29,015 bases of DNA from Coleofasciculus chthonoplastes F2-STO-03 (GCA_040222015.1 JAVJWO010000080.1:1-29015); one strand, 5' to 3'. Counted from the stretch's first letter, positions 405-20,860 are shown. The notes: a model not told the origin generated them from the sequence alone. A program made the numbers and translations.

Positions 405-602
405 TGAGTACAAATCTGTACTCAGTACAAGAACCGAATAAAATTAGCTCAATTCCGCACTACAATAGGCTTTGAGCGTGAGTACAGAAATACTCGAACC
501 CCACCCCTTAAATACTTGCACCCCATCCCGAAAATACTAGAACCCCTACCCCCAAAGAAATTTGAAACGCCTCTGTAATCAGACTTTAGGGTGATGAGTA
601 CA
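405..602 (+). promoter_or_regulatory. Cyanobacterial nifB promoter motifs (putative CnfR/PatB-recognised TGAGTACA boxes)
   Basis: TGAGTACA at 405-412 (perfect inverted partner TGTACTCA at 417-424), at 479-486 (partial partner TACTCG) and at 595-602, all upstream of a nifB-derived ORF. Matches the motif known from cyanobacterial nifB promoters. Confidence 0.75.
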
Positions 603-797
603 TAACCAATTAATCTAATAAGTTTTAACGCCAGCCCAACGGAACCTCCTGTTTAGACCAAGCTGCTATAAAAACAACTATCGCCGGAATTCAAGTATGA
701 AGGATGACCAATCAACTCCTTCATACTTAACTGTTTAAGTATTGGCGTTGGGTGTTAAGGGTGCATTTATCTTTTAATCAGACAATGCCGAAAGCCC

Positions 798-1337
798 ATG
801 ACTCAAACAGTTACTGGATTAGCTACGCCGAGACGATTAGGCGATTCGGGGACACCGGAGGAGGATGTCATGAACACCAACAGTCTGAAGATGAAATCAG
901 AATACGACTTGAAACGACCTCAGGAACGACAAACGGGCAAAGAGCCTAAAGAAATCCTGAACGCGACTCGAACTGAAAATATCTCCTCTGTCGCCAATCG
1001 GACTAAAATCCGCGTCGCTGTCGCCAGTAAAGGGGGTGGCTTGGTTAATCAACATTTCGGTCATGCTAAAGAATTCGAGATTTATGAAGTGAATCGCGAT
1101 GAAGCCCATTGTATTGATCGGCGTTCCGTAACTCCCTATTGCCAAGGCGGGTATGGCGAAGCCGATGTACTGGAAAACATTATGCAAACGCTTTCAGATT
1201 GCCAAGCTGTTCTGGTTTCTAAGATTGGTGCTTGTCCCAAGGAACAATTGCAAGCGCAGGGAATTGAGTGTGTTGAAGCCTATGACGTGATTGAAAACGT
1301 GGTGTTGGACTTCTACGAGCAATATCAACTGTCCTAG
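798..1337 (+). CDS. Cyanobacterial nifB relic: NifX/NifB-C (FeMo-co binding) domain only, radical SAM domain absent. Alternative start ATG 870 with RBS GGAGGAGG.
   Basis: VAVASKGGGLVNQHFGHAKEF...YCQGGYGE...VLVSKIG...EAYDVIE...FYEQ closely follows the C-terminus of cyanobacterial NifB. No CxxxCxxC motif. Sits in the nifB position before nifS-nifU. Confidence 0.85.
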   Translation: MTQTVTGLATPRRLGDSGTPEEDVMNTNSLKMKSEYDLKRPQERQTGKEPKEILNATRTENISSVANRTKIRVAVASKGGGLVNQHFGHAKEFEIYEVNRDEAHCIDRRSVTPYCQGGYGEADVLENIMQTLSDCQAVLVSKIGACPKEQLQAQGIECVEAYDVIENVVLDFYEQYQLS

Positions 1338-1395
1338 GAGCGGGTTTTACCGATAACGTTTGATACAAAACCAATCCCTTAACTAAACCCGCCCT
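1335..1395. repeat. REP-like palindromic element overlapping the stop codon of the nifB relic
   Basis: TAGGAGCGGGTTT...AAACCCGCCCT inverted arms. Confidence 0.8.
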
Positions 1396-1496
1396 GATTC
1401 AAACATAGAGTATTTTATTTTGTATCTTTGGTTACGGTTTTTCTGGAATTTTAGCATCGGATTCGATTCCTAAACTGATGTTCTATAGGTAGACCT

Positions 1497-2723
1497 ATGA
1501 GTGTAATTTATTTAGATAACAATGCCACTACTCGTGTAGATGAGGCTGTGCTGGAGGAGATGCTGCCTTATCTGAGTGAATATTATGGAAATCCCTCCAG
1601 CATGCACACGTTTGGTGGACAATTATCCCGCAACTTAGAGCAAGCACGAGAAAACGTTGCGGCATTATTGGGCGCTCAACCGACAGAAATTATCTTTACC
1701 AGTTGTGGTACGGAAGGGGATAATGCTGCGATTCGCGCCGCGTTGATCACTCAACCGGACAAGAAGCATATTGTTACCACTGCGGTGGAACATCCAGCGG
1801 TTTACAGTCTTTGCAAACGACTGGAAAAAGAAGGATATCGGGTGACGTATCTCCCGGTTAATGGCAAAGGATTGATTGATCTCAAGGAACTGAAAGCTTC
1901 TCTCACCGACGACACGGCGCTGGTTTCAGTGATGTGCGCCAATAATGAAACGGGGACGATTTTCCCAATTGAACGGATTGGGCAGATTGTTAAAGAACGG
2001 GGCATTTTATTCCACGTTGATGCGGTGCAAGCGGTGGGGAAAGTTCCCTTAAATATGAGCGAGAGTACTGTTGATTTTTTGGTTCTATCGGGTCATAAAC
2101 TTCATGCGCCTAAAGGGATTGGGGTACTTTATGTTCGCAAAGGGGTGCGCTTTCGTCCTCTGCTGATTGGGGGTCATCAAGAACGAGGGCGTCGAGGGGG
2201 TACGTCAAATGTTCCCGCCATTATTGGCTTAGGAAAAGCCGCAGAATTGGCAATCCAGCACGTCACGGAAGAAGTTACCCAGGTGAAGGAATTACGCGAT
2301 CGCTTGGAACAAGGATTACTGAGTCGGATTTCCGATTGTCAGCTTAATGGTCATCCATCGATGCGGCTACCGAATACGACGAATATTGGCTTTAAGTATA
2401 TCGAAGGTGAAGCCATTTTACTGTCCCTGGATCGCTTCGGTATCTGCGCCTCGTCGGGTTCGGCTTGCACCTCTGGCTCATTAGAACCGTCTCATGTGCT
2501 GCGGGCGATGGGACTCCCTTACACCCTTCTCCATGGTTCGATTCGCTTTAGTCTGTCCCGGTATACCACCTCGGCTGAAATTGATCGGGTGTTGGAAGTG
2601 ATGCCACCAATAGTAGAACGTTTGCGAACGATTTCCCCCTTCAAGAATGAAGCAGACGAAGAACAGGGTTGGCTTCAGACAGCCAGGGAGCAACAGGGTA
2701 GAGGGGTTATGACGGTGCAATGA
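1497..2723 (+). CDS. nifS: Cysteine desulfurase NifS
   Basis: IYLDNNATT start, SGHKLHAPKG PLP lysine, SSGSACTSGSLEPSHVL catalytic Cys; next to nifU. Confidence 0.97.
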   Translation: MSVIYLDNNATTRVDEAVLEEMLPYLSEYYGNPSSMHTFGGQLSRNLEQARENVAALLGAQPTEIIFTSCGTEGDNAAIRAALITQPDKKHIVTTAVEHPAVYSLCKRLEKEGYRVTYLPVNGKGLIDLKELKASLTDDTALVSVMCANNETGTIFPIERIGQIVKERGILFHVDAVQAVGKVPLNMSESTVDFLVLSGHKLHAPKGIGVLYVRKGVRFRPLLIGGHQERGRRGGTSNVPAIIGLGKAAELAIQHVTEEVTQVKELRDRLEQGLLSRISDCQLNGHPSMRLPNTTNIGFKYIEGEAILLSLDRFGICASSGSACTSGSLEPSHVLRAMGLPYTLLHGSIRFSLSRYTTSAEIDRVLEVMPPIVERLRTISPFKNEADEEQGWLQTAREQQGRGVMTVQ

Positions 2724-2732
2724 GCAGGGTTT

Positions 2733-2926
2733 GTAGAGACGTAGCATGCTACGTCTGGGAGATTTTGTCGGGGCTCACTTTCACTACTATCGTTTGAAAT
2801 GGTGCGTTACGCTACCCTACCCTTCGGGAACGCTTCGCGAACGGGAACGCTTCGCGAACGCTAACGCACCCTACGCCCGCCCCGATTTTACGTAATGACG
2901 AATGACAAATGACGAATGACGAATAA
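2733..2926. repeat. Repeat cluster in the nifS-nifU spacer: GTAGAGACG palindrome (2733-2756), nested palindrome (2801-2874), heptamer ATGACGA/ATGACAA repeats (~2896-2926)
   Basis: GTAGAGACGTAGCATGCTACGTCT; GGTGCGTTACGCT[insert]CGCTAACGCACCCTAC; short STRR-like array. Confidence 0.85.
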
Positions 2927-2940
2927 CGGGAGAATAAGCG

Positions 2941-3894
2941 ATGTGGGACTACACTGACAAGGTAATGGATTTGTTTCATAATCCTCACAATATGGGCGCG
3001 ATCGCGACTCAAGATTGTGATCCGACGGAAACGATCGCGGTTGGCGAAATTGGCAGTATTGTTTGTGGCGATGCGTTGCGGTTGTATCTGAGGATTGATA
3101 CCAAAACCGATATTATCTTAGACGCCCGTTTTCAAACCTTTGGTTGTGCGAGTGCGATCGCGTCTTCCTCGGCGCTGACGGATCTGATTAAGGGGATGAC
3201 GGTTGATGATGCGTTGCGACTGACGAATCGTGAGATTGCTAGCTATTTGGGCGGCTTACCTCAAGAGAAGATGCACTGTTCGGTCATGGGTCAAGAAGCC
3301 CTGGAAGCGGCAATCTCTGATTATAAAGGAGTTCCGGTTAGACCGGAGGAAGAGGATGAAAGTCCCCTAGTGTGTAGTTGCTTTGGGGTGAGTTCCGCTA
3401 AGATTAAGCGACTGATTCGGGAAAATCACCTCACTAACGCTGAAGAAGTCACCAATTACATTAAAGCCGGTGGGGGGTGTGGCTCTTGTTTGGCAGATAT
3501 CGATGATCTGGTGATCGATGTTACTCAAGAACAGGATAAATTAAACACCGCCGCGTCGCTATCCGCACCGATTCCTCAACCCGCCGTCGCTACAACGACT
3601 CCATCGACTTCCCCGATCAAAGAAAGCCAGGGGGGAACGCGATCGGCTACCAAGCTAACCAACTTGCAAAAAATTACCTTGATTCAGCAGGTTCTGGAAA
3701 CGGAAATCCGTCCCACATTAGCCTATGATGGCGGCGATGTCGAGTTGCATGACGTAGAGGGCGATCGCGTCAAGGTGATTCTCAAAGGATCGTGTGATGG
3801 TTGTCCCAGCGTGATGATTACCCTGAAGATGGCGATCGAAAAGCGGCTGCAAGAACGAGTGTCTCCTAATCTTATTGTTGAAGCTGTGGTTTAA
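2941..3894 (+). CDS. nifU: Fe-S scaffold NifU (IscU-like, BFD-like [2Fe-2S] and Nfu domains)
   Basis: MWDYTDKV, CGDAL, FQTFGCASAIAS, KMHCSVMG, CSCFG/GGGCGSC, DGGDVEL...CDGC; cyanobacterial LTNLQKITLIQ segment. Confidence 0.97.
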   Translation: MWDYTDKVMDLFHNPHNMGAIATQDCDPTETIAVGEIGSIVCGDALRLYLRIDTKTDIILDARFQTFGCASAIASSSALTDLIKGMTVDDALRLTNREIASYLGGLPQEKMHCSVMGQEALEAAISDYKGVPVRPEEEDESPLVCSCFGVSSAKIKRLIRENHLTNAEEVTNYIKAGGGCGSCLADIDDLVIDVTQEQDKLNTAASLSAPIPQPAVATTTPSTSPIKESQGGTRSATKLTNLQKITLIQQVLETEIRPTLAYDGGDVELHDVEGDRVKVILKGSCDGCPSVMITLKMAIEKRLQERVSPNLIVEAVV

Positions 3895-3963
3895 GTTTAA
3901 TGGGCAAATTTTGACTTCAGTTTCTGATTGAACAGGTTTTAACGTAACTCCGTTGTATAGGTA

Positions 3964-3994
3964 ACCCTTGGTGAATCGCCAAGGGTATTTTTTT
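3964..3994 (+). terminator. Intrinsic terminator-like hairpin after nifU
   Basis: ACCCTTGGTGA-A-TCGCCAAGGGT stem followed by A and a T7 tract. Confidence 0.6.
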
Positions 3995-4402
3995 GACCGA
4001 TAACAGGTTGGATTGATTCTACAAGTAAGTAACATTTGCATTGAGTAATCTGAATTAAAAACAGTGTTAATTATCACTATTTAATAATAATTAAAGCTTT
4101 AACTAAATTGTAGACAAGCAATTAATCTATCGTTTGTATAGAAAGACTAATACTTTTTTACAAACCGAAAAATTCTGAATAAAAACTAAATCAATAAACT
4201 TCTGTTTTTGTAGCAAAATACACTTTTACTTCTAGATTTAATTTCTATTATTAAATCATCAGGAAAACAAAAAACGTTACCAGGATAAACGCTCAATTGT
4301 TTCTTGATTGACTTGAAGCTTTCGGATCGTTGAACATACCATAATTCTCCGAATCAACTTCAATTAACTGTTAATAATGTAACCTCAAAAACTTGAGCCT
4401 AA

Positions 4403-5239
<837 letters not shown>

Positions 5240-5268
5240 AGATGCAGTGAAAGATGCAGTGTGTTGCA

Positions 5269-5303
5269 GGTGGAAGGTTAGAAAAGGTTCCATACCTTCC
5301 ACC
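5269..5303 (+). promoter_or_regulatory. Stem-loop just downstream of nifH (possible transcript stabiliser or attenuator)
   Basis: GGTGGAAGGT / ACCTTCCACC perfect 10-bp stem without a U tract; preceded by a 12-bp direct duplication AAAGATGCAGTG (5238-5261). Confidence 0.5.
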
Positions 5304-5340
5304 GCTGAAATACAAGCACAATTGTTTGGAGGCAACATCC

Positions 5341-5700
5341 ATGACTATCATGGTGAGAGCGATTATTCGACCGGAAAAGAGCGACGACGTGATGAAAGCG
5401 CTCTTGGACGCTGGTTATCCAGCCGTTACCAAAGTTGATGTCTTTGGTCGAGGCAAACAACGGGGATTGAAAATTGGTAATGTGCTTTATGATGAACTAC
5501 CCAAAGCGTTGTTAATGGTAGTGGTTCCCGATACCGAAAAAGAGTTTGTGATTCGGGCAATTCTCAGCAGCGCTCGCACGGGAGAAGAAGGAGCAGCAGG
5601 CGATGGCAAGATATTTGTCAGTCCTGTAGAAGAAGTCTACACCATCAGCTCCGGCAAAACTGATTCGAGTAAGAAAGAACCTGCGCTGGCTACGCGCTAA
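5341..5700 (+). CDS. nifI1: PII-family nitrogenase regulator NifI1
   Basis: IIRPEK, GRGKQRG, YDELPK, GDGKIFVSPVEEVYTISSG; lies between nifH and nifD; RBS GGAGG before ATG 5341. Confidence 0.93.
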   Translation: MTIMVRAIIRPEKSDDVMKALLDAGYPAVTKVDVFGRGKQRGLKIGNVLYDELPKALLMVVVPDTEKEFVIRAILSSARTGEEGAAGDGKIFVSPVEEVYTISSGKTDSSKKEPALATR

Positions 5701-5727
5701 ACATGAGACCCATTTTGTATCCATTGT

Positions 5728-5762
5728 TCTTGTAGAAATCGTTATTAACGGTTTCTACAAGA
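5728..5762. promoter_or_regulatory. Strong hairpin between nifI1 and nifI2
   Basis: TCTTGTAGAAATCGTTA / TAACGGTTTCTACAAGA near-perfect inverted repeat. Confidence 0.55.
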
Positions 5763-5816
5763 GAACTCCCCGGTTTATGTTAGGAGGCACGAGAGTAAAT
5801 CTCAGTGTTGAAGGTT

Positions 5817-6212
5817 ATGAAAGAAGTTCTGGCTGTCATCAGGATGAACAAAATTAACCAGACGAAAGAAGCATTAAGTAAAGCTGGTTTTCCTTCAGTG
5901 ACAGCGGTGAAAGTGGTCGGTCGAGGCAGGCAGCCTGTGGACTTTCAGTTAGCGAAAGCAATTAATGAAAATCCCCAAGATAGCAGTGATTTGCTGCCCC
6001 TCCTGGCTCAAGGACACCGTTTAATCCCTAAACGGATGCTCAGTTTGGTGGTTCCCGATGACAACGTTCAGCAAGTGGTTGACGCCCTGATTCAAGCCAA
6101 TCAGACCAGCAACCCCGGAGATGGAAAAATCTTTGTTCTGCCCATCGAGGATAGTGTCCGCGTTAGCAGCGGCGAAACAGGAGCCGTCGCGATTGATGAA
6201 ATGGCGGGTTAA
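5817..6212 (+). CDS. nifI2: PII-family nitrogenase regulator NifI2
   Basis: MKEVLAVIRMNKINQTKEAL, GRGR, RLIPKR, GDGKIFVLP; second member of the PII pair. Confidence 0.93.
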   Translation: MKEVLAVIRMNKINQTKEALSKAGFPSVTAVKVVGRGRQPVDFQLAKAINENPQDSSDLLPLLAQGHRLIPKRMLSLVVPDDNVQQVVDALIQANQTSNPGDGKIFVLPIEDSVRVSSGETGAVAIDEMAG

Positions 6213-6228
6213 GGTTTCCCCGCGAAAT

Positions 6229-6291
6229 ATAGGGGCGGGTTTTACGGGATAACGTTTTGGTACACATCGATAACTTGACTAAATCCGCCCT
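6229..6291. repeat. REP-like palindromic element between nifI2 and nifD
   Basis: ATAGGGGCGGGTTT...AAATCCGCCCT; the interior resembles the copy at 1335. Confidence 0.8.
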
Positions 6292-6325
6292 TCTAGGAAA
6301 GTAATTAAGACAGGAGAAAACGATT

Positions 6326-7945
6326 ATGAGTCCCCATGATTCAGATACCTTGAAATTAGAAAAGGCGACGTATGAAGTAGACCCGAAAGAGGTTACCAAA
6401 GAGATGGTAGCCCCCTACCCAACCAAAGTTGCCAGAAAACGGGCAAAGCATATCGTGATGCGGGACCCGTCCGTCGAAGGACAGGAAATTCAGGCGAATG
6501 TGCGAACAGTTCCTGGGATTCTCAACACTAGACACTGTGCTTTTGCCGGATGTAAAGGGGTGGTTGTTGGTCCCTTTGGTGATGTGCTGCACATTGTTCA
6601 CGGACCAGTGGGCTGTTCATACTACACCTGGATGACGCGACGCAACCAGTATCGGGCTCGTGAAGATGGCAAGAATTACATGAGCTACTGCCTCACCACT
6701 GATATGCAGGACTCTGATATTGTCTTCGGCGGTGTGAAAAAGCTGCGTCAAGCCGTTCAGGAAGGCTATGACATCTTTAAGCCCAATGCGATTACCATCA
6801 CAGCCACCTGTCCTGTGGGATTAATTGGTGACGATATTCAAACCGTTGCCAAAGAGATGACAGAAAAGTTGGGCATTTCGGTTGTTGCATTTAACTGCGA
6901 AGGATACAAAGGCGTTTCCCAGTCTGCGGGTCACCATATCGCCAACAATGGCTTCTTTAAAAATTGGGTGGGTGAAGGCGAAGCAACAGACGAAGAACTT
7001 GAAGGCTTCACCGTCAACCTTTTGGGTGAGTACAACATCGGCGGCGATTCCTGGGAACTTGAGCGGGTGTTTGAGAAGTGTGGCATTAATGTGATTGCTA
7101 CATTCAGTGGTGATGGCAACTACGATGCGGCAACAAAAGCGCATTTGGCTCAATTGAACTTGGTCATGTGTCACCGCTCGATTAACTACATGGCGGAGAT
7201 GATGGAAACCAAGTTTGGGGTTCCTTGGACGAAGGTCAGCTTTATCGGCGTTCAAGCTTTTGCCAAGTCATTGCGTAAGGTTGCCCGATTCTTTAATGAT
7301 GAAGCACTCACCCAGCGCATTGAAGAGGTGATTGCTGAAGAAGTGGCTGCCGCAGAAGCTGAAATTGCCCCGATTCGGGAACGGTTGCAAGGCAAGAGTG
7401 CGATTCTGTTTGTGGGCGGTTCTCGCGCTCACCATTACCAAGACTTGTTTGCCGACTTAGGCATCAAAACCATTGCCGCAGGTTATGAGTTCGCCCACCG
7501 GGATGACTACGAAGGTCGTCAAGTTCTACCGTTGAAAGTAGACGCCGACTCCCGCAACGTCGAAGAGTTGCATGTCGAAAAAGACCCAGAGCGCTACAAA
7601 CTGACGGCTGACCCAGCATGGGTGGAGCAGCTCAAAGAGGAAGGGTTCCTGAATCGGTACGAGGGCATGATTTCGGAGATGGGTGAAGACACCTTGATGA
7701 TTGATGACATCTCCCATCATGAGCTAGAAACTCTGATTAAGCGCCTCAAGCCCGATATCGTCGGTTCCGGGATTAAGGACAAGTATGTGATTGAGAAGTT
7801 TGGCGTTCCTTGTAAGCAACTTCACAACTACGACTACGGCGGTCCGTTTGCCGGATTCCAAGGTGCGGTTAATTTCGCCAAAGATATCGATATGCGGATT
7901 AACAACCCCACTTGGAAGCTAGTTAAAGCCCCCTGGCAGAACTAG
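6326..7945 (+). CDS. nifD: Nitrogenase MoFe protein alpha chain, group II/cluster III type with the internal insertion
   Basis: P-cluster Cys (HCAFAGC, GPVGC, ATCPVGLIGDD), GVSQSAGHH, MCHRS (Cys275 equivalent), GGSRAHH, EFAHRDDY, QLHNYDY (His442 equivalent); ~50-aa insert after EFAHRDDY; 539 aa. Confidence 0.97.
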   Translation: MSPHDSDTLKLEKATYEVDPKEVTKEMVAPYPTKVARKRAKHIVMRDPSVEGQEIQANVRTVPGILNTRHCAFAGCKGVVVGPFGDVLHIVHGPVGCSYYTWMTRRNQYRAREDGKNYMSYCLTTDMQDSDIVFGGVKKLRQAVQEGYDIFKPNAITITATCPVGLIGDDIQTVAKEMTEKLGISVVAFNCEGYKGVSQSAGHHIANNGFFKNWVGEGEATDEELEGFTVNLLGEYNIGGDSWELERVFEKCGINVIATFSGDGNYDAATKAHLAQLNLVMCHRSINYMAEMMETKFGVPWTKVSFIGVQAFAKSLRKVARFFNDEALTQRIEEVIAEEVAAAEAEIAPIRERLQGKSAILFVGGSRAHHYQDLFADLGIKTIAAGYEFAHRDDYEGRQVLPLKVDADSRNVEELHVEKDPERYKLTADPAWVEQLKEEGFLNRYEGMISEMGEDTLMIDDISHHELETLIKRLKPDIVGSGIKDKYVIEKFGVPCKQLHNYDYGGPFAGFQGAVNFAKDIDMRINNPTWKLVKAPWQN

Positions 7946-7950
7946 CCAAT

Positions 7951-8070
7951 GTAGAGACGCGCCATGGCGCGTCTGAGAGCAAAAAAGTTATCCGTTAATT
8001 CTTGCGAGCAGGGCGGGTTTAGTCACATCTGGGTTGAACAAGCAACGTTAATAGTGAAACCCGCCCCTAC
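7951..8070. repeat. Two palindromic elements in the nifD-nifK spacer (7951-7974 and 8010-8070)
   Basis: GTAGAGACGCGCCATGGCGCGTCT and AGGGCGGGTTT...AAACCCGCCCCTAC. Confidence 0.85.
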
Positions 8071-8101
8071 ATACTTAAACCCACAAAGGAGAACCAGAAT
8101 C

Positions 8102-9478
8102 ATGTTAGAAGCAACCCCTAAAGAAATCGTTGAACGCAAGGCGCTACGAATCAACCCTGCTAAGACTTGTCAGCCCATTGGTGCAATGTACGCCGCATTA
8201 GGGATTCACGGCTGCTTACCGAACTCCCACGGCTCCCAAGGCTGCTGTTCCTTCCATAAGTCTCACCTGACCCGCCATTACAGAGAACCCATCATGGCGG
8301 CAACCAGCGCCTTTACCGAGGGTTCCTCTGTGTTCGGCGGTGGTGCAAACCTGAAGCAAGCCCTGACCACTATTTTTACCGTGTACAACCCGGATATGGT
8401 GGCAGTTAGCACCACTTGTTTATCGGAAACCATTGGCGATGATTTACCGACATTTATCCGCCAAGCCCGTGAATCTGGGGCAGTTCCCGAAGGCAAATAT
8501 GTCATTCACGCCAATACTCCCAGCTACGTCGGGTCTCATGTCACCGGCTGGTCGAATATGACTAAGGCGATGGTGACTTATTTATCGGCAAAAACCGAGA
8601 CGCCGAATAACAAGCTCAACATTATTCCGGGCTATGTCGAACCCTCCGATGTAAGGGCGGTTAAGCAGTTGGTGACCCAAATGGGGATTGATGCGATTGT
8701 CTTCCCGGATACCTCGGATGTGGTGGATACACCGAAAACCGGTGATTTTCAGATGTACCCGAAAGGCGGGACACTGATTCCTGATTTAATCGACACGGGG
8801 AATAGTACTGCCACCTTAGCCTTGGGTAATTTTACCTCGGAAGCCGCCGCGATCGCACTCCAAAACAAGTGCCAAGTTCCGTCTCGTGTCCTAGACTTAC
8901 CCATTGGTCTTCGCGCCACTGACCGCTTTGTCCAAGCCTTGATTGAATTCAGTGATGTCACGCCACCTGAGTCGCTCAATGATGACCGAGGACGATTGGT
9001 TGATGTGATGACTGATATGCAGCAGTACCTGTATCGCAAGCGGGTTGCGGTATACGGTGACCCTGACCAAGTAATCTCGGCGACTGAGTTCCTCGTAGAC
9101 TGTGGGATGTTACCCGTTTACGTAATTACCGGAAGCCCAGTTGGTAAGCGCTTTGAAGAACGAGTCAAAGACATCCTCAAAGACACCGTTCCCGATGCCA
9201 TTGTCGCCGCGAATGCCGACTTATTCTACCTGCATCAACTGATTAAAAACGAGCCAGTCGATTTACTACTAGGCAACGAATACGGCAAATATATCGGTCG
9301 TGATGAAGACATTCCGATCGTGCGCTTCGGCTTCCCCATTTTAGATCGCGTTGGTCACAGCTACTTCCCCACAGCTTGCTACTGGGGCGGTATTTACCTG
9401 CTGTCTAATATTTGCAACACCCTACTCGAACGCCTCGACCGGGATGCGCCCGATGAACTCTTTGAATTAGTACGCTAA
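8102..9478 (+). CDS. nifK: Nitrogenase MoFe protein beta chain (short group II form, 458 aa)
   Basis: INPAKTCQPIG, HGSQGCC, TTCLSETIGDD, TPSYVGSH, FELVR end. Start placed at ATG 8102 after AAGGAG; the ORF-track extension from 7964 is translated repeat DNA. Confidence 0.96.
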   Translation: MLEATPKEIVERKALRINPAKTCQPIGAMYAALGIHGCLPNSHGSQGCCSFHKSHLTRHYREPIMAATSAFTEGSSVFGGGANLKQALTTIFTVYNPDMVAVSTTCLSETIGDDLPTFIRQARESGAVPEGKYVIHANTPSYVGSHVTGWSNMTKAMVTYLSAKTETPNNKLNIIPGYVEPSDVRAVKQLVTQMGIDAIVFPDTSDVVDTPKTGDFQMYPKGGTLIPDLIDTGNSTATLALGNFTSEAAAIALQNKCQVPSRVLDLPIGLRATDRFVQALIEFSDVTPPESLNDDRGRLVDVMTDMQQYLYRKRVAVYGDPDQVISATEFLVDCGMLPVYVITGSPVGKRFEERVKDILKDTVPDAIVAANADLFYLHQLIKNEPVDLLLGNEYGKYIGRDEDIPIVRFGFPILDRVGHSYFPTACYWGGIYLLSNICNTLLERLDRDAPDELFELVR

Positions 9479-9550
9479 ACCCAGGGGCGGGTTCAACAAC
9501 AATCCGTTGTTTCCCGCCCACTCTCCAACCCAAAACTTAAACCCTCCAAT

Positions 9551-9603
9551 CCCTCTGCGTACCTCTGCGCTAACCTCTGCGTACCTCTGCGTTAAAAAAA
9601 CAA
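9551..9603. repeat. CCTCTGCG-type dispersed repeat
   Basis: CCCTCTGCGTACCTCTGCGCTAACCTCTGCGTACCTCTGCGTTAAAAAAA; near-identical copy at 17518-17570. Confidence 0.9.
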
Positions 9604-9657
9604 CCCAGAACCCAACCACCAACCCCAAATTATTCACCCTTTCCAAGGAAACTTACC

Positions 9658-9963
9658 ATGCAAAAACCCGAACACCATATATTCGTTTGTTCCAGCTTCC
9701 GAGTCAACGGCGACGCCAAAGGCGTTTGTCAGAAAAAAGATTCTACAACCTTAATCCAGTACCTCGAATCAGAAATCACAGACCGTGGTTTAGACGCTCT
9801 GGTTTCCTCAACAGGATGCATGAATCTGTGCAACAACGGACCCGTAATGATGGTTTATCCAGACAATTATTGGTACGGTAATGTTGATGAAGAAGCCATT
9901 GACGAAATCCTCGACGCCTTAGAAGACGGCAAACCTGCTGAGGATTATATTTTTGTCAGTTAA
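9658..9963 (+). CDS. Thioredoxin-like [2Fe-2S] ferredoxin (Clostridium pasteurianum 2Fe / Shethna I type)
   Basis: HIFVC11...C24...GC54MNLC58NNGPVMMVYPDNYWYG; lies inside the nif operon. Confidence 0.92.
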   Translation: MQKPEHHIFVCSSFRVNGDAKGVCQKKDSTTLIQYLESEITDRGLDALVSSTGCMNLCNNGPVMMVYPDNYWYGNVDEEAIDEILDALEDGKPAEDYIFVS

Positions 9964-9979
9964 ATCTCAGAAAATAAAA

Positions 9980-10039
9980 GGCGACCCGAGTCAATTAAGT
10001 GGATAAAGTTGTTCATTTGTGCAAGCGGGTCGCCCCTAC
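9980..10039. repeat. REP-like palindrome before nifE
   Basis: GGCGACCCG...CGGGTCGCCCCTAC. Confidence 0.7.
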
Positions 10040-10120
10040 ACAAAAACCTATCCGTTAAATCCAACACCCCACCTCTCTTTTTTTTACCTTCTGCCTTCTG
10101 AAGTTTATGAGCCTGACGAT

Positions 10121-11488
10121 ATGGAACCTGTTATTTTCCAAGAACGTGAAAAGCAAATTCACCGCAAGGGAAACCAACCATTTGACCTGGAATGTAACAA
10201 AGACAGCCTTGCTGGTGCAGTTAGCCAACGTGCTTGCGTTTTTTGTGGGTCTCGCGTTGTTTTATACCCCATCGCTGACGCGGTTCATTTAGTCCATGGA
10301 CCAATCGGATGTGCGGCGTATACGTGGGATATTCGCGGGGCGCTTTCATCGGGTCCAGAATTGCATCGGTTGAGTTTTTCCACGGACTTACAAGAACGGG
10401 ATGTTATCTTTGGTGGTGAGAAAAAACTGTATCAGGCGTTAACGGAACTGATTGACCGACATCACCCCAATGCGGCATTTGTTTATTCTACCTGTATTGT
10501 GGGGATTATTGGCGATGATTTAGAAGCGATATGTCGGCGAGTTAGCCAAGAAAAAAATATCCCAGTAATTCCGGTTAAATCAGAAGGGTTTAAGGGTAAC
10601 AAACGGGCGGGCTATAATGCTGCTTGTACTGCCATGTTTCGCTTAGTCGGTACAGGGGATACTACCGGAATTTCTCCCCGCAGTATTAATATTCTGGGTG
10701 ATTTTAATTTAGCCGGAGAAATTTGGATTATCCGCGAATATTTTGAACGCATGGGTGTCCAGGTTGTTGCCAATATCACAGGGGATGGTAGAGTCGGAGA
10801 TATCGCGCGATCGCACGGCGCTGCATTGAACGTGGTTCAGTGTTCTGGGGCGACGATGGACTTAGCCAAGATGATGAAGGAAAAGTATGGAACTCCGTTT
10901 CTGCGAGTGTCCTACTTTGGTGTCGAAGACATGGCGGAAGCCTTGTATAAAGTTGCCCGATTCTTCGAGGATGACCCAGACATTCTCAAACGCGCTCAAG
11001 ACTTAGTGCGGGAAGAATTAACCCTGTTATATACTAAACTGCAAGAGTACCGCAAAGACTTGCAAGGTAAAAAAGCGGCGATTTATGTGGGCGGTGCGTT
11101 CAAAGCCTTTTCATTAGTGAAAGCCTTCCGACTTATCGGCATGGATGTGGTGATGGTGGGTTCGCAAACGGGAACCAGTGAAGACTACCGAGAACTCCAC
11201 GAAGTTACTGACGAAGGCACAATTATTGTGGATGATTCTAATCCCTTAGAACTCTCAGCATTTTTGAAAGAAAAAGATGTTGATATCTTTGTCGGCGGCG
11301 TGAAAGAACGACCGATTGCCTATAAATTAGGACTAGGATTTTGCGACCACAACCATGAACGCAAGGAAGCATTAGAAGGATTTCTGGGAATGGTGAATTT
11401 TGCCAAAGAAGTGCATAGTACCGTCATGTCTCCCGTCTGGAGATTCGTGCCGCGTAAAAATAAAGCCTTGAACTCAAGTTCAAGCTAA
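10121..11488 (+). CDS. nifE: FeMo-cofactor scaffold NifE
   Basis: AGAVSQRACVFCGS, HGPIGCAAYTWDIRG, STCIVGIIGDD, VVQCS, FCDHNHERK; anaerobe-type sequence; start placed at ATG 10121. Confidence 0.95.
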   Translation: MEPVIFQEREKQIHRKGNQPFDLECNKDSLAGAVSQRACVFCGSRVVLYPIADAVHLVHGPIGCAAYTWDIRGALSSGPELHRLSFSTDLQERDVIFGGEKKLYQALTELIDRHHPNAAFVYSTCIVGIIGDDLEAICRRVSQEKNIPVIPVKSEGFKGNKRAGYNAACTAMFRLVGTGDTTGISPRSINILGDFNLAGEIWIIREYFERMGVQVVANITGDGRVGDIARSHGAALNVVQCSGATMDLAKMMKEKYGTPFLRVSYFGVEDMAEALYKVARFFEDDPDILKRAQDLVREELTLLYTKLQEYRKDLQGKKAAIYVGGAFKAFSLVKAFRLIGMDVVMVGSQTGTSEDYRELHEVTDEGTIIVDDSNPLELSAFLKEKDVDIFVGGVKERPIAYKLGLGFCDHNHERKEALEGFLGMVNFAKEVHSTVMSPVWRFVPRKNKALNSSSS

Positions 11489-11494
11489 AAGCTT

Positions 11495-11717
11495 AAACCC
11501 GTTAAAACGGGTTGTTCGTAGTAGGCACTTTAATGCCTCAAGTTGTAGGGTGTGTTAGCGAAGCGTAACGCACCATTATTCCTCAAACTTAAGTTGTAGG
11601 GTTAGCGTTCACGCCGCGTTTCCGTTCGCGCAGAGTTCCCGTTCGCAAAGCGTTCCCGTTCGCGAAGCGTTCCCGAAGGGTAGGGTAGGGTAGGGTAGCG
11701 TAACGCACCATTATTCC
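11495..11717. repeat. Repeat cluster in the nifE-nifN spacer: AACCCGTT palindrome, plain REP (11545-11574) and a duplicated copy with nested insert (11596-11709)
   Basis: AAGTTGTAGGG...GCGTAACGCACCATTATTCC occurs twice; the second copy contains four 17-bp units plus GGGTA repeats. Confidence 0.85.
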
Positions 11718-11766
11718 AGGATTGAAATGATAAACAATTACCTAATTCGCTGCCACCGATAAAACA

Positions 11767-13269
11767 ATGTCTAAGAAACTCAAAATTAAGCAAAAAACCG
11801 AAGCTTACGTTTCCACAACCAACGCCTGTAAACTGTGTAAACCGCTGGGCGCTTGTATTGCCTTTCGGGGAATTGAAGGAACCGTACCATTTCTGCATGG
11901 ATCACAAGGCTGCGCCACCTACATGAGGCGTTATATCATCAGTCACTTTCGCGAACCCATTGACATCGCCTCATCTTCCTTGAGTGAAAAACACGCCGTC
12001 TATGGCGGAGGACCTAACCTGAAAAAAGGTATCCTCAATGTCATGGATAAATATGGCGCAAAAGTTGTGGGAATTGCCACCACTTGCTTAACTGAAACCA
12101 TTGGGGATGATGTCACAGGATTTTTGAAAGAGTTTAAGGAAGAATTTGGCGACAAGGAATTGCCAACCTTGTTAAATGTCTCCACCCCCAGTTATAGTGG
12201 CACCCACATGGAAGGCTTTCATGCCACAGTAAGGGCAGTTATTGATCAATTAGTGGAACCAAAAACAGTCGAACCCACAACCGCTTCCCAATCCCCAGGA
12301 GTCGGGGCGGGTTTAGTCACATCTGTGCCAACAGAAAGTGATAGTCGTGAAACCAGCCCCTACACAATCAACAATCAACAATCAACAATCAACACCTCCA
12401 AAGTCAATCTTTTACCTGGATTAGTTTCTCCCGCCGATATCCGTTATCTAAAAGAAGTTCTCGATGATTTTAATTGTCCAGGAACTATCCTACCGGATAT
12501 CTCAGAAACCTTAGACGGACCCGCCCAAATGGACTATGAAAAGATTCCTGAAGGGGGAACGCCAATTGCAGCAATTCAACTTATGGGACATTCTGGCGCC
12601 ACGATTGAGTTCGGTCAAGTGTTGCAACGTAGTGGTAATTCTGGGGGTCAACTTCTGGCTAAACGCAGCGGTGTTCCCCTGTACGCCTTGGGTATGCCGA
12701 TTGGGTTGCGAGAGTGCGATCGCTTTTTTGACACCCTAGAAGAGCTGTCTGGTTGTGCGACACCGAGAAAACATGAACTGGAACGGGGACGGTTAGTTGA
12801 TGCGTATGTTGATTCCCATAAATATCTGTTTGGTAAGCGGGTAGTTGTTTATGGGGAAGAGGATTTGTGTGTCGGATTAGCGGCATTTTTAGCCGAAATT
12901 GGCATGAAGATAGTCTTATGTGCATCAGGAGGAAATAGTGGACATTTTCAGGACGCGATTAATGCGGTTACGTCTGATATTGTCACCGAACCGCCAATCG
13001 TTAAAGAAGGATTTGATTTCTATGAAATTTCTGAAGAAATCGAAAGTCTAGACCCCGATATGTTGATTGGCACCAGCAAAGGATATTCCCTGACTAAAAA
13101 ACATCAAATTCCCCTAATCCGCGTAGGCTTCCCCATTCACGATCGCTTTGGCGGACAGCGGATGCTACATCTGGGGTATCGGGGGACTCAGAACCTGTTA
13201 GATCGGATTGTGAATGCCATTATCGAGAAGAAGCAAACCGATTCACCAGTGGGGTATGGCTATCTTTGA
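11767..13269 (+). CDS. nifN: FeMo-cofactor scaffold NifN with an in-frame repeat-derived insertion
   Basis: NACKLCKPLGA, HGSQGCATYMRRY, TTCLTETIGDD, TPSYSGTH, GFPIHDRFGG; follows nifE. Confidence 0.95.
   Translation: MSKKLKIKQKTEAYVSTTNACKLCKPLGACIAFRGIEGTVPFLHGSQGCATYMRRYIISHFREPIDIASSSLSEKHAVYGGGPNLKKGILNVMDKYGAKVVGIATTCLTETIGDDVTGFLKEFKEEFGDKELPTLLNVSTPSYSGTHMEGFHATVRAVIDQLVEPKTVEPTTASQSPGVGAGLVTSVPTESDSRETSPYTINNQQSTINTSKVNLLPGLVSPADIRYLKEVLDDFNCPGTILPDISETLDGPAQMDYEKIPEGGTPIAAIQLMGHSGATIEFGQVLQRSGNSGGQLLAKRSGVPLYALGMPIGLRECDRFFDTLEELSGCATPRKHELERGRLVDAYVDSHKYLFGKRVVVYGEEDLCVGLAAFLAEIGMKIVLCASGGNSGHFQDAINAVTSDIVTEPPIVKEGFDFYEISEEIESLDPDMLIGTSKGYSLTKKHQIPLIRVGFPIHDRFGGQRMLHLGYRGTQNLLDRIVNAIIEKKQTDSPVGYGYL
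12301..12394. repeat. REP-like element (12301-12363) plus 4x ACAATCA inside nifN
   Basis: Shares GGGCGGGTTTAGTCACATCTG and GTGAAACCnGCCCCTACA with the intergenic copy at 8010-8071. Confidence 0.9.
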
Positions 13270-13349
13270 TTTTGTCTTATGTCTTATGTCAATGACTTGT
13301 TTTTGATAGGTTTACCTAAATTCAACTCATCACTTCAGGAGAGAAAACC

Positions 13350-14633
13350 ATGACAGCTACAGTTAACTTAGAAAATCACCCTTGTTTTAATGTCAAGGTA
13401 AAAGGACAATTCGGACGAGTCCATTTACCTGTAGCACCCAAGTGCAATATTCAATGTAATTATTGCAATCGCAAATATGATTGCGTCAACGAAAGTAGAC
13501 CTGGTGTCACCAGCACTATTCTTTCTCCCGCCCAAGCCGCTGTTTACATGGAAAAGGTATTAGAAAAAGAACCGAGAATCAGTGTTGCTGGAATTGCTGG
13601 TCCCGGTGATCCCTTTGCCAATCCAGAGGAAACCTTAGGTACAATGCGCCTACTGCGGGAAAAGTTTCCCGACTTAATTCTCTGCTTGGCGACCAATGGC
13701 TTGAATCTCAAATCAGAGTATATCGACGAAATTGCCGAAATTGGCGTCAGTCACGTTACTGTTACCATCAACGCGATCGACCCAGAAATTACTCGCAAGG
13801 TGTACCGTTGGGTACGCCATGAAAAGTCAGTGTATCAGGGCTTAAAAGGTGCTAAGTTACTCTTAGAACGCCAATTAGTAGCCGTAAAAGGACTGAAAGC
13901 CGCAGGAATTACGGTTAAAATTAACTGCATTGTGATGCCCGGAATTAATGACCATCATGTGGTGGAAGTCGCCAAATCTATGGCAGAACTTGGGGCAGAT
14001 TTATTCAATGCCATGGCGATGTATCCCACCGCAGAAACGCCATTTGAGGGATTAACTGAACCCGATGCAATTATGATGGCGAAAATCCGCAAAGAATGCG
14101 AGGAATATTTACCGCAAATGCGCCATTGCACGCGCTGTCGGGCGGATGCTGTGGGACTTTTGGGCGCAGATCAGTCAGAGGAATTCCATGGTTGTTTGAT
14201 TGCTTGTTCCAAGAAAGTGATTCCCATTGAAGAAAAAGAACGCCCTTATGTTGCTGTGGCAAGCGTTGAAGGAATTCTAGTGAATCAACATTTAGGTCAA
14301 GCGGATCAGTTTCAGATTTGGCAGAAAACCGATCAAGGCTTTACCTTAGTAGAAGAACGCCTCGCCCCTGACCGTGGAAGTGGTTTTGAACGGTGGCAAA
14401 AAGTTGCAAATATGCTTAAAGATTGTCGAGCGATTTTAGCCAGTAGTATTGGCGATAACCCGAAAGAAATTTTGACCAAGTGTGGTGTGCTTCCGGTGGA
14501 AATGAGCGGCTTTATTGAGACGGGATTGCAAGCGGTTTATGAGGGTAGCGATTTGTCAAAGCTGAAAGGTAAACGGCAAGTTGCGGTGGGTAAAGTTGGA
14601 GAATGTACCGGGAGTGGCTTAGGTTGTGGTTAA
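13350..14633 (+). CDS. nifB: FeMo-cofactor biosynthesis radical SAM protein NifB (full length, with C-terminal NifX-like domain)
   Basis: HPCF, CNIQCNYC, ESRPGV, AGPGDPFAN, CTRCRADA, then VAVAS...VNQHLG. RVHLPVAPK form is of the anaerobe type. Confidence 0.97.
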   Translation: MTATVNLENHPCFNVKVKGQFGRVHLPVAPKCNIQCNYCNRKYDCVNESRPGVTSTILSPAQAAVYMEKVLEKEPRISVAGIAGPGDPFANPEETLGTMRLLREKFPDLILCLATNGLNLKSEYIDEIAEIGVSHVTVTINAIDPEITRKVYRWVRHEKSVYQGLKGAKLLLERQLVAVKGLKAAGITVKINCIVMPGINDHHVVEVAKSMAELGADLFNAMAMYPTAETPFEGLTEPDAIMMAKIRKECEEYLPQMRHCTRCRADAVGLLGADQSEEFHGCLIACSKKVIPIEEKERPYVAVASVEGILVNQHLGQADQFQIWQKTDQGFTLVEERLAPDRGSGFERWQKVANMLKDCRAILASSIGDNPKEILTKCGVLPVEMSGFIETGLQAVYEGSDLSKLKGKRQVAVGKVGECTGSGLGCG

Positions 14634-15233: not shown

Positions 15234-15443
15234 TTAATCTGTTGCCACCATGACATCTGTCGCTTTAACAACAGCATACGCTTCCTTACCCTCGGCAAGA
15301 CCGAGTCGTTCTGCCGAAGACTTGGTGATAATTGCCGTCATTTCTATCCCAGGAGCAACTTCTATTGTCACCTCACTGTTCACAGAGCCAGGTACAACCT
15401 TTTTTACTGTTCCTTTAAAGGTATTGCGAGCGCTAATTTCCAT
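15234..15443 (-). CDS. mop: Molybdate-binding Mop/TOBE protein (molbindin)
   Basis: ISARN...GTV...G.VNSEV...AIITKSS..RLGL.EG..AYAVVKATDV; 69 aa. Confidence 0.95.
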   Translation of the reverse strand: MEISARNTFKGTVKKVVPGSVNSEVTIEVAPGIEMTAIITKSSAERLGLAEGKEAYAVVKATDVMVATD

Positions 15444-15622
15444 AGTTCAATCCCTGCTTTAGTCATTGGTTCACCAGCTAATAATACCAAAAATTAGTGA
15501 ATTTTCTGATTTTGCTGAACAATTTTAGTCAACCAGCAAAATGTATTATTTTACTCACTTTTACCCTCGCAGAAATGATATAGCCTAGTCAGAAGACCGA
15601 ATGCAAAAATGCGGCATACGTA

Positions 15623-16471
15623 ATGGTTTTTATCTCACAGCAGTTTATCGAACAGTTAATCCAAGAAGACGTTCCCTATTTTGATTTAACCACCCAGGTG
15701 TTAGGGATTGGCGATCGCACGGGGACAATCCGCTTTACCACTCGCGCCCAAACCGTTCTAGCCTGTACCGAGGAAGCCGCCAGTATCTTACGCCAAACTG
15801 GGGCAGAGGTGACAGCAATCTTGGCAACGGGTCAAATCTTGGACGCTGGCGTCACCTTTCTCAGTGCTACCGGAAACGCCGCCGCCTTGCATCTCGCCTG
15901 GAAACCTGCCCAGAATTTACTGGAATATGCCTGTGGAGTCGCCACCAAAACCTACAATCTAGTGCAGATAGCACAAGCGGCTAATCAGGATGTAATGCTT
16001 TATACCACTCGCAAAGTGATTCCAGCAACCAAACCCATCGCCATGAAAGCCATCTTAGCGGGTGGGGCATATCCTCATCGACTGGGAGTCTCAGAAACCG
16101 TTTTAATCTTCCAACAGCATCTCAACTTTCTGGGCGGAATTGACTCCCTTATTCAGCAACTACCCGTAATCAAGCGCCAGGTTAAGGAAAAGAAAGTCAT
16201 TGTTGAAGTCAAAGATATGGCTACCGCCTTTAAGTTAGCCACTTCAGGCATCGATGGGATTCAATTTGATAAAGTAAATGCCGAGACATTAGCGGAAACA
16301 ATTCCCCAGATTAAGTCCATGAATCCAACCCTGATTACCCTGGCGGCTGGCGGGATTAATGACGCTAATATTGCCAATTATGCGGCAACTGGCGTAGATG
16401 GGTTAGTGTTAACCGCTCCCTATTATGCCAAGCCTGCTGATATCCAGGTGGAAATTGAGCCGCTAGTCTAA
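15623..16471 (+). CDS. modD: ModD family protein (NadC/quinolinate phosphoribosyltransferase-like)
   Basis: EDVPYFDLTT, QNLLEYACGVAT, TTRK, HRLGVSETVLIF, QFDK, AAGGIN; among molybdenum genes. Confidence 0.88.
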   Translation: MVFISQQFIEQLIQEDVPYFDLTTQVLGIGDRTGTIRFTTRAQTVLACTEEAASILRQTGAEVTAILATGQILDAGVTFLSATGNAAALHLAWKPAQNLLEYACGVATKTYNLVQIAQAANQDVMLYTTRKVIPATKPIAMKAILAGGAYPHRLGVSETVLIFQQHLNFLGGIDSLIQQLPVIKRQVKEKKVIVEVKDMATAFKLATSGIDGIQFDKVNAETLAETIPQIKSMNPTLITLAAGGINDANIANYAATGVDGLVLTAPYYAKPADIQVEIEPLV

Positions 16472-16595
16472 GCAAGCAGACTATCAAGGATTGTAACATT
16501 TATAATGTATAATTTTGGTCTATTTTAATCCGTGGATAGTTGAACCAAAGTTGCATAATCATCCAATTTAACAGTCAGAATAAGTCAAAACTAAA

Positions 16596-17405
16596 ATGAA
16601 TCAACGACGTGTTATATCCTTAATGGTATGGATGGTGGCGGCTTTTTTAATCGTTGTGGGTTGTTCTCAAGGGACACCTCCGAACCCTTCCGCCACGTCA
16701 CCAGAATCGGTAGAAATTACGGTATCAGCGGCAGCTAGTCTACAGGATGCCATGAAAGCGATCGCGCCATTATATACTCAAGAACAAGCTAACGTTATCA
16801 TTACCTATAACTTTGGCTCCTCGGGTTCTCTGCAACAGCAAATCGAACAAGGAGCGCCTGTGGATGTCTTTCTGTCCGCCGCGCAAAAACAGATGAACGC
16901 TTTGCAAGAGAAAGACTTACTACTAACTGATACACGCAAAGACTTATTGAAAAACTCAATAGTTCTAGTCACACCAAAGGATAAAAGCGATATATCTAAC
17001 TTTGAAGGATTGACGACTGATAAAGTGAGCAAAATTGCCATTGGTGACCCGAAAAGTGTACCCGCTGGACAATATGGGAAAGAAGTCCTAACTTCACTGA
17101 ATTTATATAAACCCATCCAATCTAAACTGGTTTTCGCCAAAGATGTGCGCCAAGTCCTCTCTTATGTAGAAACCGGAAATGTTGAGGCAGGATTAGTCTA
17201 TGCCACGGATGCCAACGTATCAGATAATATCAAGATTGTCGCCACAGCACCCGAAACGTCTCACTCACCCATTATTTATCCAGTTGCGGTTTTAAAAGAG
17301 AGTAAACATCCGGATTCAGCCAAAAAGTTTGTGCAGTTTCTCTCAACTGAAACCGCTAAAACTGTATTTCATAACTATGGCTTTAGCGTTAATGGCACTC
17401 TATAA
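16596..17405 (+). CDS. modA: Molybdate ABC transporter substrate-binding lipoprotein
   Basis: Lipobox VVGC, SAAASL, FGSSGSLQQQIEQGAPVDVF, PAGQY, DVRQVL, YATDA. Confidence 0.96.
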   Translation: MNQRRVISLMVWMVAAFLIVVGCSQGTPPNPSATSPESVEITVSAAASLQDAMKAIAPLYTQEQANVIITYNFGSSGSLQQQIEQGAPVDVFLSAAQKQMNALQEKDLLLTDTRKDLLKNSIVLVTPKDKSDISNFEGLTTDKVSKIAIGDPKSVPAGQYGKEVLTSLNLYKPIQSKLVFAKDVRQVLSYVETGNVEAGLVYATDANVSDNIKIVATAPETSHSPIIYPVAVLKESKHPDSAKKFVQFLSTETAKTVFHNYGFSVNGTL

Positions 17406-17421
17406 TTTGCATTAGAGCAAT

Positions 17422-20652: not shown

Positions 20653-20659
20653 GTTGTAA

Positions 20660-20764: not shown

Positions 20765-20860
20765 GCCCACCAGTCTTAAGTCAGTGACATTCCCCTTAAG
20801 TTAAAGGGTTAGGGTGATCACAAATCTACTGAAGTCAGCTTGATGTGGGAAAGCCAACCT

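Follow-up and report, generated by a model that had tools for sequence, protein, structure and literature searches.

The nitrogen fixation (nif) cluster of Coleofasciculus chthonoplastes F2-STO-03 (GCA_040222015.1), located at positions 405 to 14,633 of a 29,015-nucleotide (nt) stretch (JAVJWO010000080.1:1-29015, hereafter the window), is a hybrid in which a head of cyanobacterial origin, nifB'-nifS-nifU, is followed by an anaerobe-derived core, nifH-nifI1-nifI2-nifD-nifK-fdx-nifE-nifN-nifB. The reading favoured here, with a probability of about 0.6, is that this Desulfobacterota-related core was joined once behind the cyanobacterial head and that the product, provided with two promoters, spread among cyanobacteria. 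The nifS and nifU genes moved together with the core, and the nifU-nifH junction is old and common to six families. The cluster, of group II, and its hybrid layout are already published under the name 'desulfo-type' for this genus, reportedly by Bolhuis in 2010, among others, for Coleofasciculus (Microcoleus) chthonoplastes. Throughout the text, G, L, g and f labels denote sampled genomes, loci, genera and families, G000 being the genome studied and f1 the family of the genus.

Origin of the head and of the core

A species tree of 49 genomes (27 proteins, 4,432 columns, FastTree) placed Coleofasciculus inside f1, among diazotrophs with cluster I nif genes, and the carriers of the hybrid cluster in five places. 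In the tree of the core proteins NifHDKENB (52 rows), all cyanobacterial group II copies formed one clade (support 100), sister to the Thermodesulfobacteriota metagenome-assembled genome (MAG) MAG101 (94.5), and a branch of 1.74 (support 100) separated these proteins from group I. The genus was sister to G637, a member of another family (100), within a clade shared with family f60 (99.2).

The NifS+NifU tree (47 rows, near-duplicates and long branches removed) recovered a cyanobacterial clade (100/100) divided into the heads of hybrid carriers (95/99) and the heads of cluster I loci (97/100), and NifS alone gave the same split under a mixture model with lower support (79 and 92). Approximately unbiased (AU) tests with gammaproteobacterial outgroups, in which constrained trees were searched briefly and rejections may be somewhat overstated, rejected a donor-derived head (p=1.7e-4), the grouping of NifS/NifU of the genus with the cluster I copies of its family (p=2.4e-4) and their grouping with G009/G017 alone (p=5e-7). 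Since NifS and NifU form a clade of hybrid carriers only and the grouping with family cluster I copies is rejected, the junction is taken to be old and shared by the carriers. An earlier AU test without the gammaproteobacterial outgroup had given p=0.13 for 'genus+delta', which concerned the root position only, and it was rerun with the outgroups. A crossover inside nifS was considered in view of its diagnostic sites, of which two of cluster I type fall in the 5' third and seven of carrier type beyond it; the partition of nifS codons 1-135 did not reject the G009/G017 grouping, but the best trees still paired the genus with G637. As for nifB', its domain was 52-64% identical to the ends of cyanobacterial cluster I NifB and 31-41% to those of group II NifB, and a branch of 2.27 (100/100) divided these relics from the group II NifB ends.

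An earlier note on this DNA, made from the sequence alone, had proposed that the ancestor was already a diazotroph and that its structural genes were displaced in place at the nifU-nifH junction, the native head being kept. The trees bear it out at the phylum level, with NifS/NifU and the relic cyanobacterial and NifHDKENB within group II beside a Thermodesulfobacteriota MAG. It was also right on the diazotrophic ancestor and the native position, as the promoter, the relic, cnfR, mop and, in relatives, cysE are like their counterparts at cluster I loci of the same family. The note was wrong on where the lineage was cut: the promoter, cnfR, relic and mop flank are likely native, nifS and nifU likely came with the core instead of being the lineage's own, and a cut between nifU and nifH in this lineage is not supported.

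Distribution and layout of the hybrid cluster

Of 401 genomes sampled from the order, 28 encode a NifD of the group II type, and a sample of the phylum (n=401) yielded six full matches and one partial, all inside the same order. The relic, nifS and nifU stood ahead of a group II nifH at 22 of 27 cyanobacterial loci, belonging to families f1, f5, f6, f12, f24 and f60, a count that omits the loci of G004 and G638, which run off their contigs; the remaining loci were that of G214, with nifS only, and four of genus g206 without any head. Several carriers retained cysE, nifV, asr1405, cnfR or mop upstream, like cluster I loci.

Among non-cyanobacterial loci, drawn from 6 of the 64 parts of the sequence collection, the order H-I1-I2-D-K-fdx-E-N was found in 12 of 57, and the 68 with at least 3 kb upstream gave one weak nifS-like match (26%), on the opposite strand. 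The Desulfobacterota group II operon of MAG101 (L044) shares this order with the window, and its NifD is 67% identical. Desulfobacterota nifU and nifS are arranged in the order U-S (21 of 21 three-domain matches) and away from nifH, unlike the S-U head described here.

Some loci departed from this layout. In G214 (L138/L288), nifS was directly followed by a partial nifH, with a partial nifD and neither nifU nor relic, which reflects decay or misassembly. In each of three g206 genomes (L122, L124, L276, L278 and L279), a group II nifH-D-K-fdx lacking nifI, head and nifENB stood apart from a complete cluster I locus, resembling the dual arrangement described in the text of a preprint (bioRxiv 10.64898/2026.01.15.699626); in two of these three, the NtcA-type site before nifH (see below) was kept. 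A complete cluster I nif locus was found on a Pseudanabaena plasmid (L193, NZ_AP017564.1), so that whole cyanobacterial nif loci can sit on plasmids.

The likely native frame of the locus

The ancestor of Coleofasciculus was probably a cluster I diazotroph that received the segment from nifS to nifB in place from a cyanobacterial carrier, as suggested by the elements surrounding this segment. The cnfR gene, located on a contig separate from the nif locus (G000:C180:15785-17401), encodes a protein with N-terminal 4Fe-4S and C-terminal helix-turn-helix domains, named CnfR from this domain layout and from nif-linked homologues, not from a dedicated model. It was 66% identical to the CnfR of family member G009, versus 45-55% to those of other hybrid carriers, whose CnfRs formed a clade excluding G000 (100/100); the relics of the other carriers likewise formed a clade without Coleofasciculus (98.9/100). 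Of 40 genomes, 33 contained a cnfR gene; it was missing in five family members, three of them without a nifH or nifD match. In relatives of the genus, the cysE found at the locus grouped with G009/G017 (82.6), being divergent at the nif locus in two species (G003 and G008) and a few kb upstream in two more. On the right flank, Mop showed 80-83% identity to G009/G010 versus 67-68% to copies linked to hybrid clusters, and mop, modA and modBC are oriented as they are where the cluster I loci of G509 and G479 end.

Two predicted promoters

The promoter boxes that the earlier note had pointed out are real: TGAGTACA, whose identity as the CnfR box motif is given in the text of 10.1101/2025.04.01.646610, had five matches in the window versus 0.73 expected, and none of 100 shuffles reached five. 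Three boxes spaced by 74 and 116 bp, with A/C-rich repeats between the second and the third, form an array that is one of two such triple arrays in the 7.7-Mb genome and the sole exact one. This array aligns base by base with cluster I nifB promoters, including the A/C-rich repeats and the extended -10 element, an element that nifB promoters are described to carry (PMC8510180). The spacing between the second and third boxes was 115-129 in 18 of 18 cluster I promoters, and the value of 116 in the genus is that of its family, versus 124-127 elsewhere. The first two boxes were exact in all seven genus loci and the third in five. At least one exact box was present in 29 of 31 cluster I loci, and among the other carriers the array was complete in G636, partial in four and without any exact box in g22 (0/7) and g74 (0/3), the latter also lacking cnfR (0/2). 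A CnfR-activated nifB promoter is thus predicted to have been retained before nifB'. Regulatory erosion was observed in some carriers (L033, L129-L133 and L136), in which the CnfR of g22 was shortened (413-440 amino acids, aa) and the NtcA-like site before nifH was kept in g22 and g74. No NtcA-like site was found in the 700 bp upstream of cnfR.

The second candidate promoter lies in the nifU-nifH spacer, which measures 520 bp here versus mostly 140-450 bp in cluster I. The hairpin located 3' of nifU had a stability z score of -3.18, with three of 200 shuffles equally stable. Downstream of it, a box and a -10 element fit the arrangement of NtcA class II promoters, whose consensus is given as GTAN8TAC about 22 nt before TAN3T (PMC3898017), and would place the start of the nifH transcript near 4258, the distance from site centre to start in such promoters being about 41.5 nt. 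The strict pattern GTN10AC-N22-TAN3T was present in 13 of 27 group II loci, spread over four families (1.7 expected), or in 21 of 27 if GC was accepted for GT, with the drawback that the pattern was defined post hoc from the alignment and that kin loci are not independent; it was found in 2 of 33 cluster I loci. Three further carriers had a strict GTAN8TAC at the aligned position, and box and -10 element, some 22 nt apart, stayed in register between families even where the rest of the spacer could not be aligned. A generic sigma-70 scan found nothing above chance (4 versus 6.4 expected). In RNA data from eight runs, taken as assembled contigs only, contigs of relatives covered nifH and other nif genes; in X2 a nifU contig ended at 3965 and a separate nifH contig began at about 4343, and in X3 a contig spanned the spacer, contig ends and depth being no guide to transcript starts or to the ranking of genes. 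The head promoter probably does not drive the core by itself, given the hairpin, its T run and the predicted NtcA-type promoter that lie in the junction.

The nifB' relic and the missing accessory genes

The relic corresponds to the stand-alone C-terminal NifX/NafY-like domain of cluster I NifB, from which the radical SAM part is gone and in which the motif HFGHA is intact. It scored 78.9 with PF02579 (cut-off 26.3) and 44.7 bits with the NifX model TIGR02663, whose cut-off is 112. The domain is under purifying selection, with ratios of non-synonymous to synonymous substitution rates (dN/dS) of 0.03-0.12 in three comparisons within the genus, the other genes of the cluster ranging from 0.02 to 0.18; its linker is drifting (0.58-1.16, from few sites), and whole-relic values in two other genera were 0.13 and 0.19. 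Weak matches were obtained to the solved NifX structure 9ian and to 1p90, which we take to be NafY, and the histidine motif is presumably cofactor-binding. We propose that nifB' acts like NifX/NafY without being itself a NifX. A retained nifB N-terminus was considered and is not supported: the ATG at 798 stands at the usual nifB start, but it comes with no NifB similarity and is found in two of the seven genus loci (G000 and G007). At L039:9386-10796, a cluster I nifB was split into open reading frames (ORFs) of 301 and 187 aa, the second being a stand-alone C-terminal domain, which may be a natural precursor of such a relic or an assembly error.

No match to nifX, nifW or nifZ was found in the genome. 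None of the nine genus genomes had a nifV gene above cut-off, nor did G042 or G636 (82% complete). A LysS/LYS20-type homocitrate synthase above the TIGR02146 cut-off is encoded at G000:C28:69270-70430 (L269:5271-6431, minus strand), and synthases of this type passed the cut-off in nine of nine genus genomes and in G042, and in none of the eight nifV-bearing hybrid carriers tested. Judging from these two independent lineages, the LysS-type enzyme is a likely substitute for NifV.

Alternative histories and modes of regulation

The place of the join could also have been Coleofasciculus itself, the anaerobe core having displaced the genes from nifH onward in the stem of the genus, whose own head was kept, before the hybrid was exported and its core later exchanged. 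We hold this to be unlikely, even though it agrees with the position of promoter, relic, cnfR and cysE, all closest to family members G009/G017, with the relic and CnfR clades that leave Coleofasciculus out, and with the first 135 codons of nifS. The core of the genus is nested beside G637 and f60, trees with 'Coleofasciculus first' (log-likelihood difference, dL, 177) or 'Coleofasciculus+G637 first' (dL 41) were rejected, and the NifS+NifU distance from the genus was 0.43 to G637 versus 0.68 to G009. A different history, proposed in the preprint text (bioRxiv 10.64898/2026.01.15.699626), regards the hybrid as an ancient second nif system that existed beside cluster I in a deep common ancestor and was differentially lost without later transfer. 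It would account for the three g206 genomes with both types and for the carrier heads, which a root on Desulfobacterota makes the sister group of every cluster I head sampled; it is nevertheless improbable, as core and species trees disagree (f12+f24+f6 clade rejected, dL 524) and core distances are below ribosomal ones in distant hosts (G000-G637, 0.23 versus 0.47; G214-G469, 0.35 versus 0.62). That several hosts independently replaced their genes in place from anaerobes, each retaining its own nifS/nifU, would suit the polyphyly of the carriers and the mat habitat that, according to the literature, they share with sulfate reducers. This explanation is largely refuted by the single core clade (100), the single head clade (95/99) and the rejection of host-specific head pairings (g74+G022, p=0.001; genus+G016, p=4e-9). 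At the level of regulation only, the whole cluster might be one CnfR-driven operon, with a hairpin serving RNA processing or stabilisation and an incidental NtcA-like site. Such an arrangement, which we find rather unlikely, is in keeping with the hairpins also contained in cluster I nifU-nifH spacers and with the nifB2 promoter of Anabaena variabilis, which is described to drive the downstream hesA2 as well (PMC8510180). It leaves aside the constant distance of about 22 nt between box and -10 element and the retention of the site in g74 and g22, whose loci lack exact CnfR boxes, and in head-less g206 loci.

Several observations weigh against the favoured history of a single join followed by transfer into Coleofasciculus, or against the functions proposed for its parts. 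For NifS+NifU, the AU test keeps both 'all heads + G009+G017' (p=0.15) and 'Coleofasciculus outside other chimera heads' (p=0.10), and monophyly of the CnfRs of all carriers is not rejected (p=0.08), so the head genes alone are compatible with Coleofasciculus as the birthplace. The placement of CnfR is weak (80.9/73), and the grouping of G000 with all family CnfRs is rejected. Mop is just 66% identical to the cluster I copy of G479, ModA shows 46-58% identity to its best matches in either class, and a recipient Coleofasciculus requires two nifB truncations. The excess of ribosomal over core distance between G000 and G637 is reversed in the cluster I pair G009-G010 (0.36 versus 0.26 for ribosomal proteins), but other cluster I pairs show the same direction (G009-G022, 0.38 versus 0.43; G010-G022, 0.25 versus 0.43), so this ratio is weak by itself. 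Concerning regulation, the NtcA-type box of the window has one mismatch to GTAN8TAC, with the GTN10AC core and the spacing satisfied, and the pattern is not confined to cyanobacteria, 7 of the 76 loci from outside the phylum having it (2.9 expected). The LysS-type gene is also present in G011, G016 and G630, and hence is not nif-specific. Finally, a table in PMC12694226 lists cultures of the genus without nitrogenase activity.

Under the single-join history, an anaerobe core would have taken the place of nifH and the genes after it in a single diazotroph of the cluster I type. The Coleofasciculus ancestor, likely a cluster I diazotroph too, would later have acquired the segment from nifS to nifB from another cyanobacterium that carried it; the insertion would have been at the native nif locus, where promoter, nifB 3' end and mop/mod flank, like cnfR elsewhere in the genome, were kept. 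The regulatory roles assigned to the cluster are all predicted from the DNA. CnfR would activate nifB'-nifS-nifU under low oxygen, the transcript would largely halt at the hairpin 3' of nifU, transcription from nifH on would be switched on by NtcA in nitrogen-starved cells, and NifI1/NifI2 would inactivate the enzyme when ammonium is present. As cofactor carrier, the nifB' domain may stand in for the missing NifX, and homocitrate, with NifV missing, may come from the unlinked LysS-type synthase. We tentatively extend this to a more specific scenario, in which the captured core gained, in a single event at the nifU-nifH junction, an NtcA class II promoter for itself, leaving CnfR to control only the Fe-S genes and the nifB' carrier, and in which the resulting cassette with two inputs (oxygen through CnfR and nitrogen through NtcA, with switch-off by NifI in ammonium) may have spread over at least six families, overwriting the cluster I locus of Coleofasciculus and making use of a lysine-pathway-type synthase for NifV.

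Features of the locus

The genes, their order and their coordinates are as the earlier note had described them, including the 274-aa NifH, the PII pair, the NifD insertion, the short NifK, the ferredoxin and the terminal nifB (Table 1).

Table 1. Features of the hybrid nif locus in the window (positions counted from its first nucleotide)
Feature	Position	Strand	Remarks
Predicted CnfR-type nifB promoter array	405..602	+	TGAGTACA boxes at 405, 479 and 595; inverted box at 417 (minus strand)
Predicted extended -10 element, TGnTATAAA	664..672	+	Aligned with cluster I nifB promoters; start predicted only
nifB' relic (C-terminal part of nifB)	870..1337	+	ORF readable from 798; 870 is the start common to relatives
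nifS	1497..2723	+	Cyanobacterial stock, in the hybrid-carrier clade
nifU, three-domain	2941..3894	+	Cyanobacterial stock, in the hybrid-carrier clade
Terminator-like 10-bp hairpin and T run	3964..3994	+	3' of nifU; same in 7/7 genus loci
Predicted NtcA class II promoter of nifH	4210..4251	+	GTN10AC box 4210-4223, 22-nt spacer, TAN3T box 4246-4251
nifH, group II	4415..5239	+	274 aa
nifI1	5341..5700	+	PII-family pair with nifI2
nifI2	5817..6212	+	PII-family pair with nifI1
nifD, Mo-type	6326..7945	+	539 aa; 50-residue insertion
nifK, Mo-type	8102..9478	+	458 aa, versus 512 aa in cluster I
fdx, thioredoxin-like 2Fe-2S ferredoxin	9658..9963	+	
nifE, group II	10121..11488	+	
nifN, group II	11767..13269	+	
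nifB, terminal, group II	13350..14633	+	Full-length
mop, modD, modA, fused modBC	15234..19756		Right flank, likely native; mop on minus strand

In profile searches, NifD, NifK, NifE, NifB, NifS, NifU and NifH passed the curated cut-offs, and NifN scored 296 (cut-off 327). The Mo type was assigned from the nifD model (669, cut-off 654), with VNFD at 312 (cut-off 823) and ANFD at 292 (cut-off 874), and no delta-subunit gene was found between nifD and nifK. The marks of a group II Mo-nitrogenase (nifH cluster III) are present, namely the nifI1/nifI2 pair between nifH and nifD and the NifD insertion of about 50 residues, which appears as a gap of 29+21 residues in alignment with cluster I NifD. 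The genome contains a single copy, with no second nifHDK set, and encodes both ntcA and a pyruvate:ferredoxin oxidoreductase. NifH identity was 98-100% in nine of nine genus genomes, and the nearest named homologue of the relic, labelled Coleofasciculus sp., was 95% identical. The earlier note had called the cluster an island, a word that does not apply in the sense of a mobile element: the GC content of the genes (0.44-0.51 versus 0.454 genome-wide) shows no composition break, no tRNA was found at the locus, and there was no integrase or transposase among the 19 window proteins scanned.

A 23-bp tandem repeat occupies the contig start (window 1-136), and the far left flank is hence out of view. 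Downstream of nifB, a 77-bp tandem repeat (14716-15023) was observed, no nif-gene remnants were found there or in the spacers, and the window is without the 140-aa HmpF-like ORF that other members of the genus have 3' of nifB. The modB and modC genes form one 670-aa ORF (17744-19756), matched by a 606-aa ORF in the cluster I locus of G509. The region 20434-28057 contains ordinary cyanobacterial neighbours, including a Nif11-like leader peptide gene and genes for a DUF29 protein, an HD-domain protein and a phytochelatin synthase, together with adenylate-cyclase-like and homoserine-kinase-like ORFs, named from sequence.

Relation to known systems and significance

The locus shares with the CnfR-controlled cluster I loci of Leptolyngbya boryana and Anabaena variabilis, nifP<>nifB-(fdxN)-nifS-nifU-nifHDK, the promoter array and its spacing, nifS before nifU, the mop/mod flank and, in two species of the genus, a divergent cysE, and differs from them in being of group II from nifH on, in having no nifX, nifW, nifZ or nifV match and in its longer nifU-nifH spacer. 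The 'desulfo-type' cluster of Coleofasciculus chthonoplastes and Sodalinema has the identical order nifB'SU-H-I1-I2-D-K-fd-E-N-B in PMC12694226, in which nifB'SU is regarded as cyanobacterial, the truncated nifB' is termed possibly non-functional and the choice between single and multiple transfer is left undecided; in contrast, nifB' is found here to be under purifying selection, one origin is favoured and the genus is without nifV. The 13 'distinct group' strains of Chen 2022 (PMC9435057) and the 'ancient nif' group II clusters reported in ten genera, with dual carriers, by the preprint (bioRxiv 10.64898/2026.01.15.699626) share, as far as these texts go, the nifI pair, the NifD insertion, the terminal nifB, a Deltaproteobacterial origin and a retained cnfR. 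The preprint text reports that CnfR cis-elements were not found and has no occurrence of NtcA. In the present data, both the genus and G636 retain an intact array ahead of nifB', and nifH is preceded by an NtcA-type site, a contrast that the preprint's figures and supplements may limit. In a search to which subscription journals were mostly outside, no published report was found of head-gene trees, of an NtcA site at this nifH or of a nifV substitute, and the literature searched gave none of the intact CnfR array, the hairpin after nifU, purifying selection on the relic or the lack of nifV throughout the genus.

The analysis thus adds two candidate promoters to a known cluster, addresses the question of single versus multiple transfer and contradicts the absence of CnfR elements reported in the preprint; the predicted reading from two promoters, the retention of the relic and the lack of nifV add modestly to what is known and can be tested. 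An anaerobe nitrogenase placed under the control of an oxygenic host would bear on nitrogenase engineering. For Coleofasciculus, which is dominant in coastal mats and whose N2 fixation is still unsettled according to PMC7445270 and PMC12694226, the loss of nifV and its candidate substitute may be a reason for the weak activity in culture.

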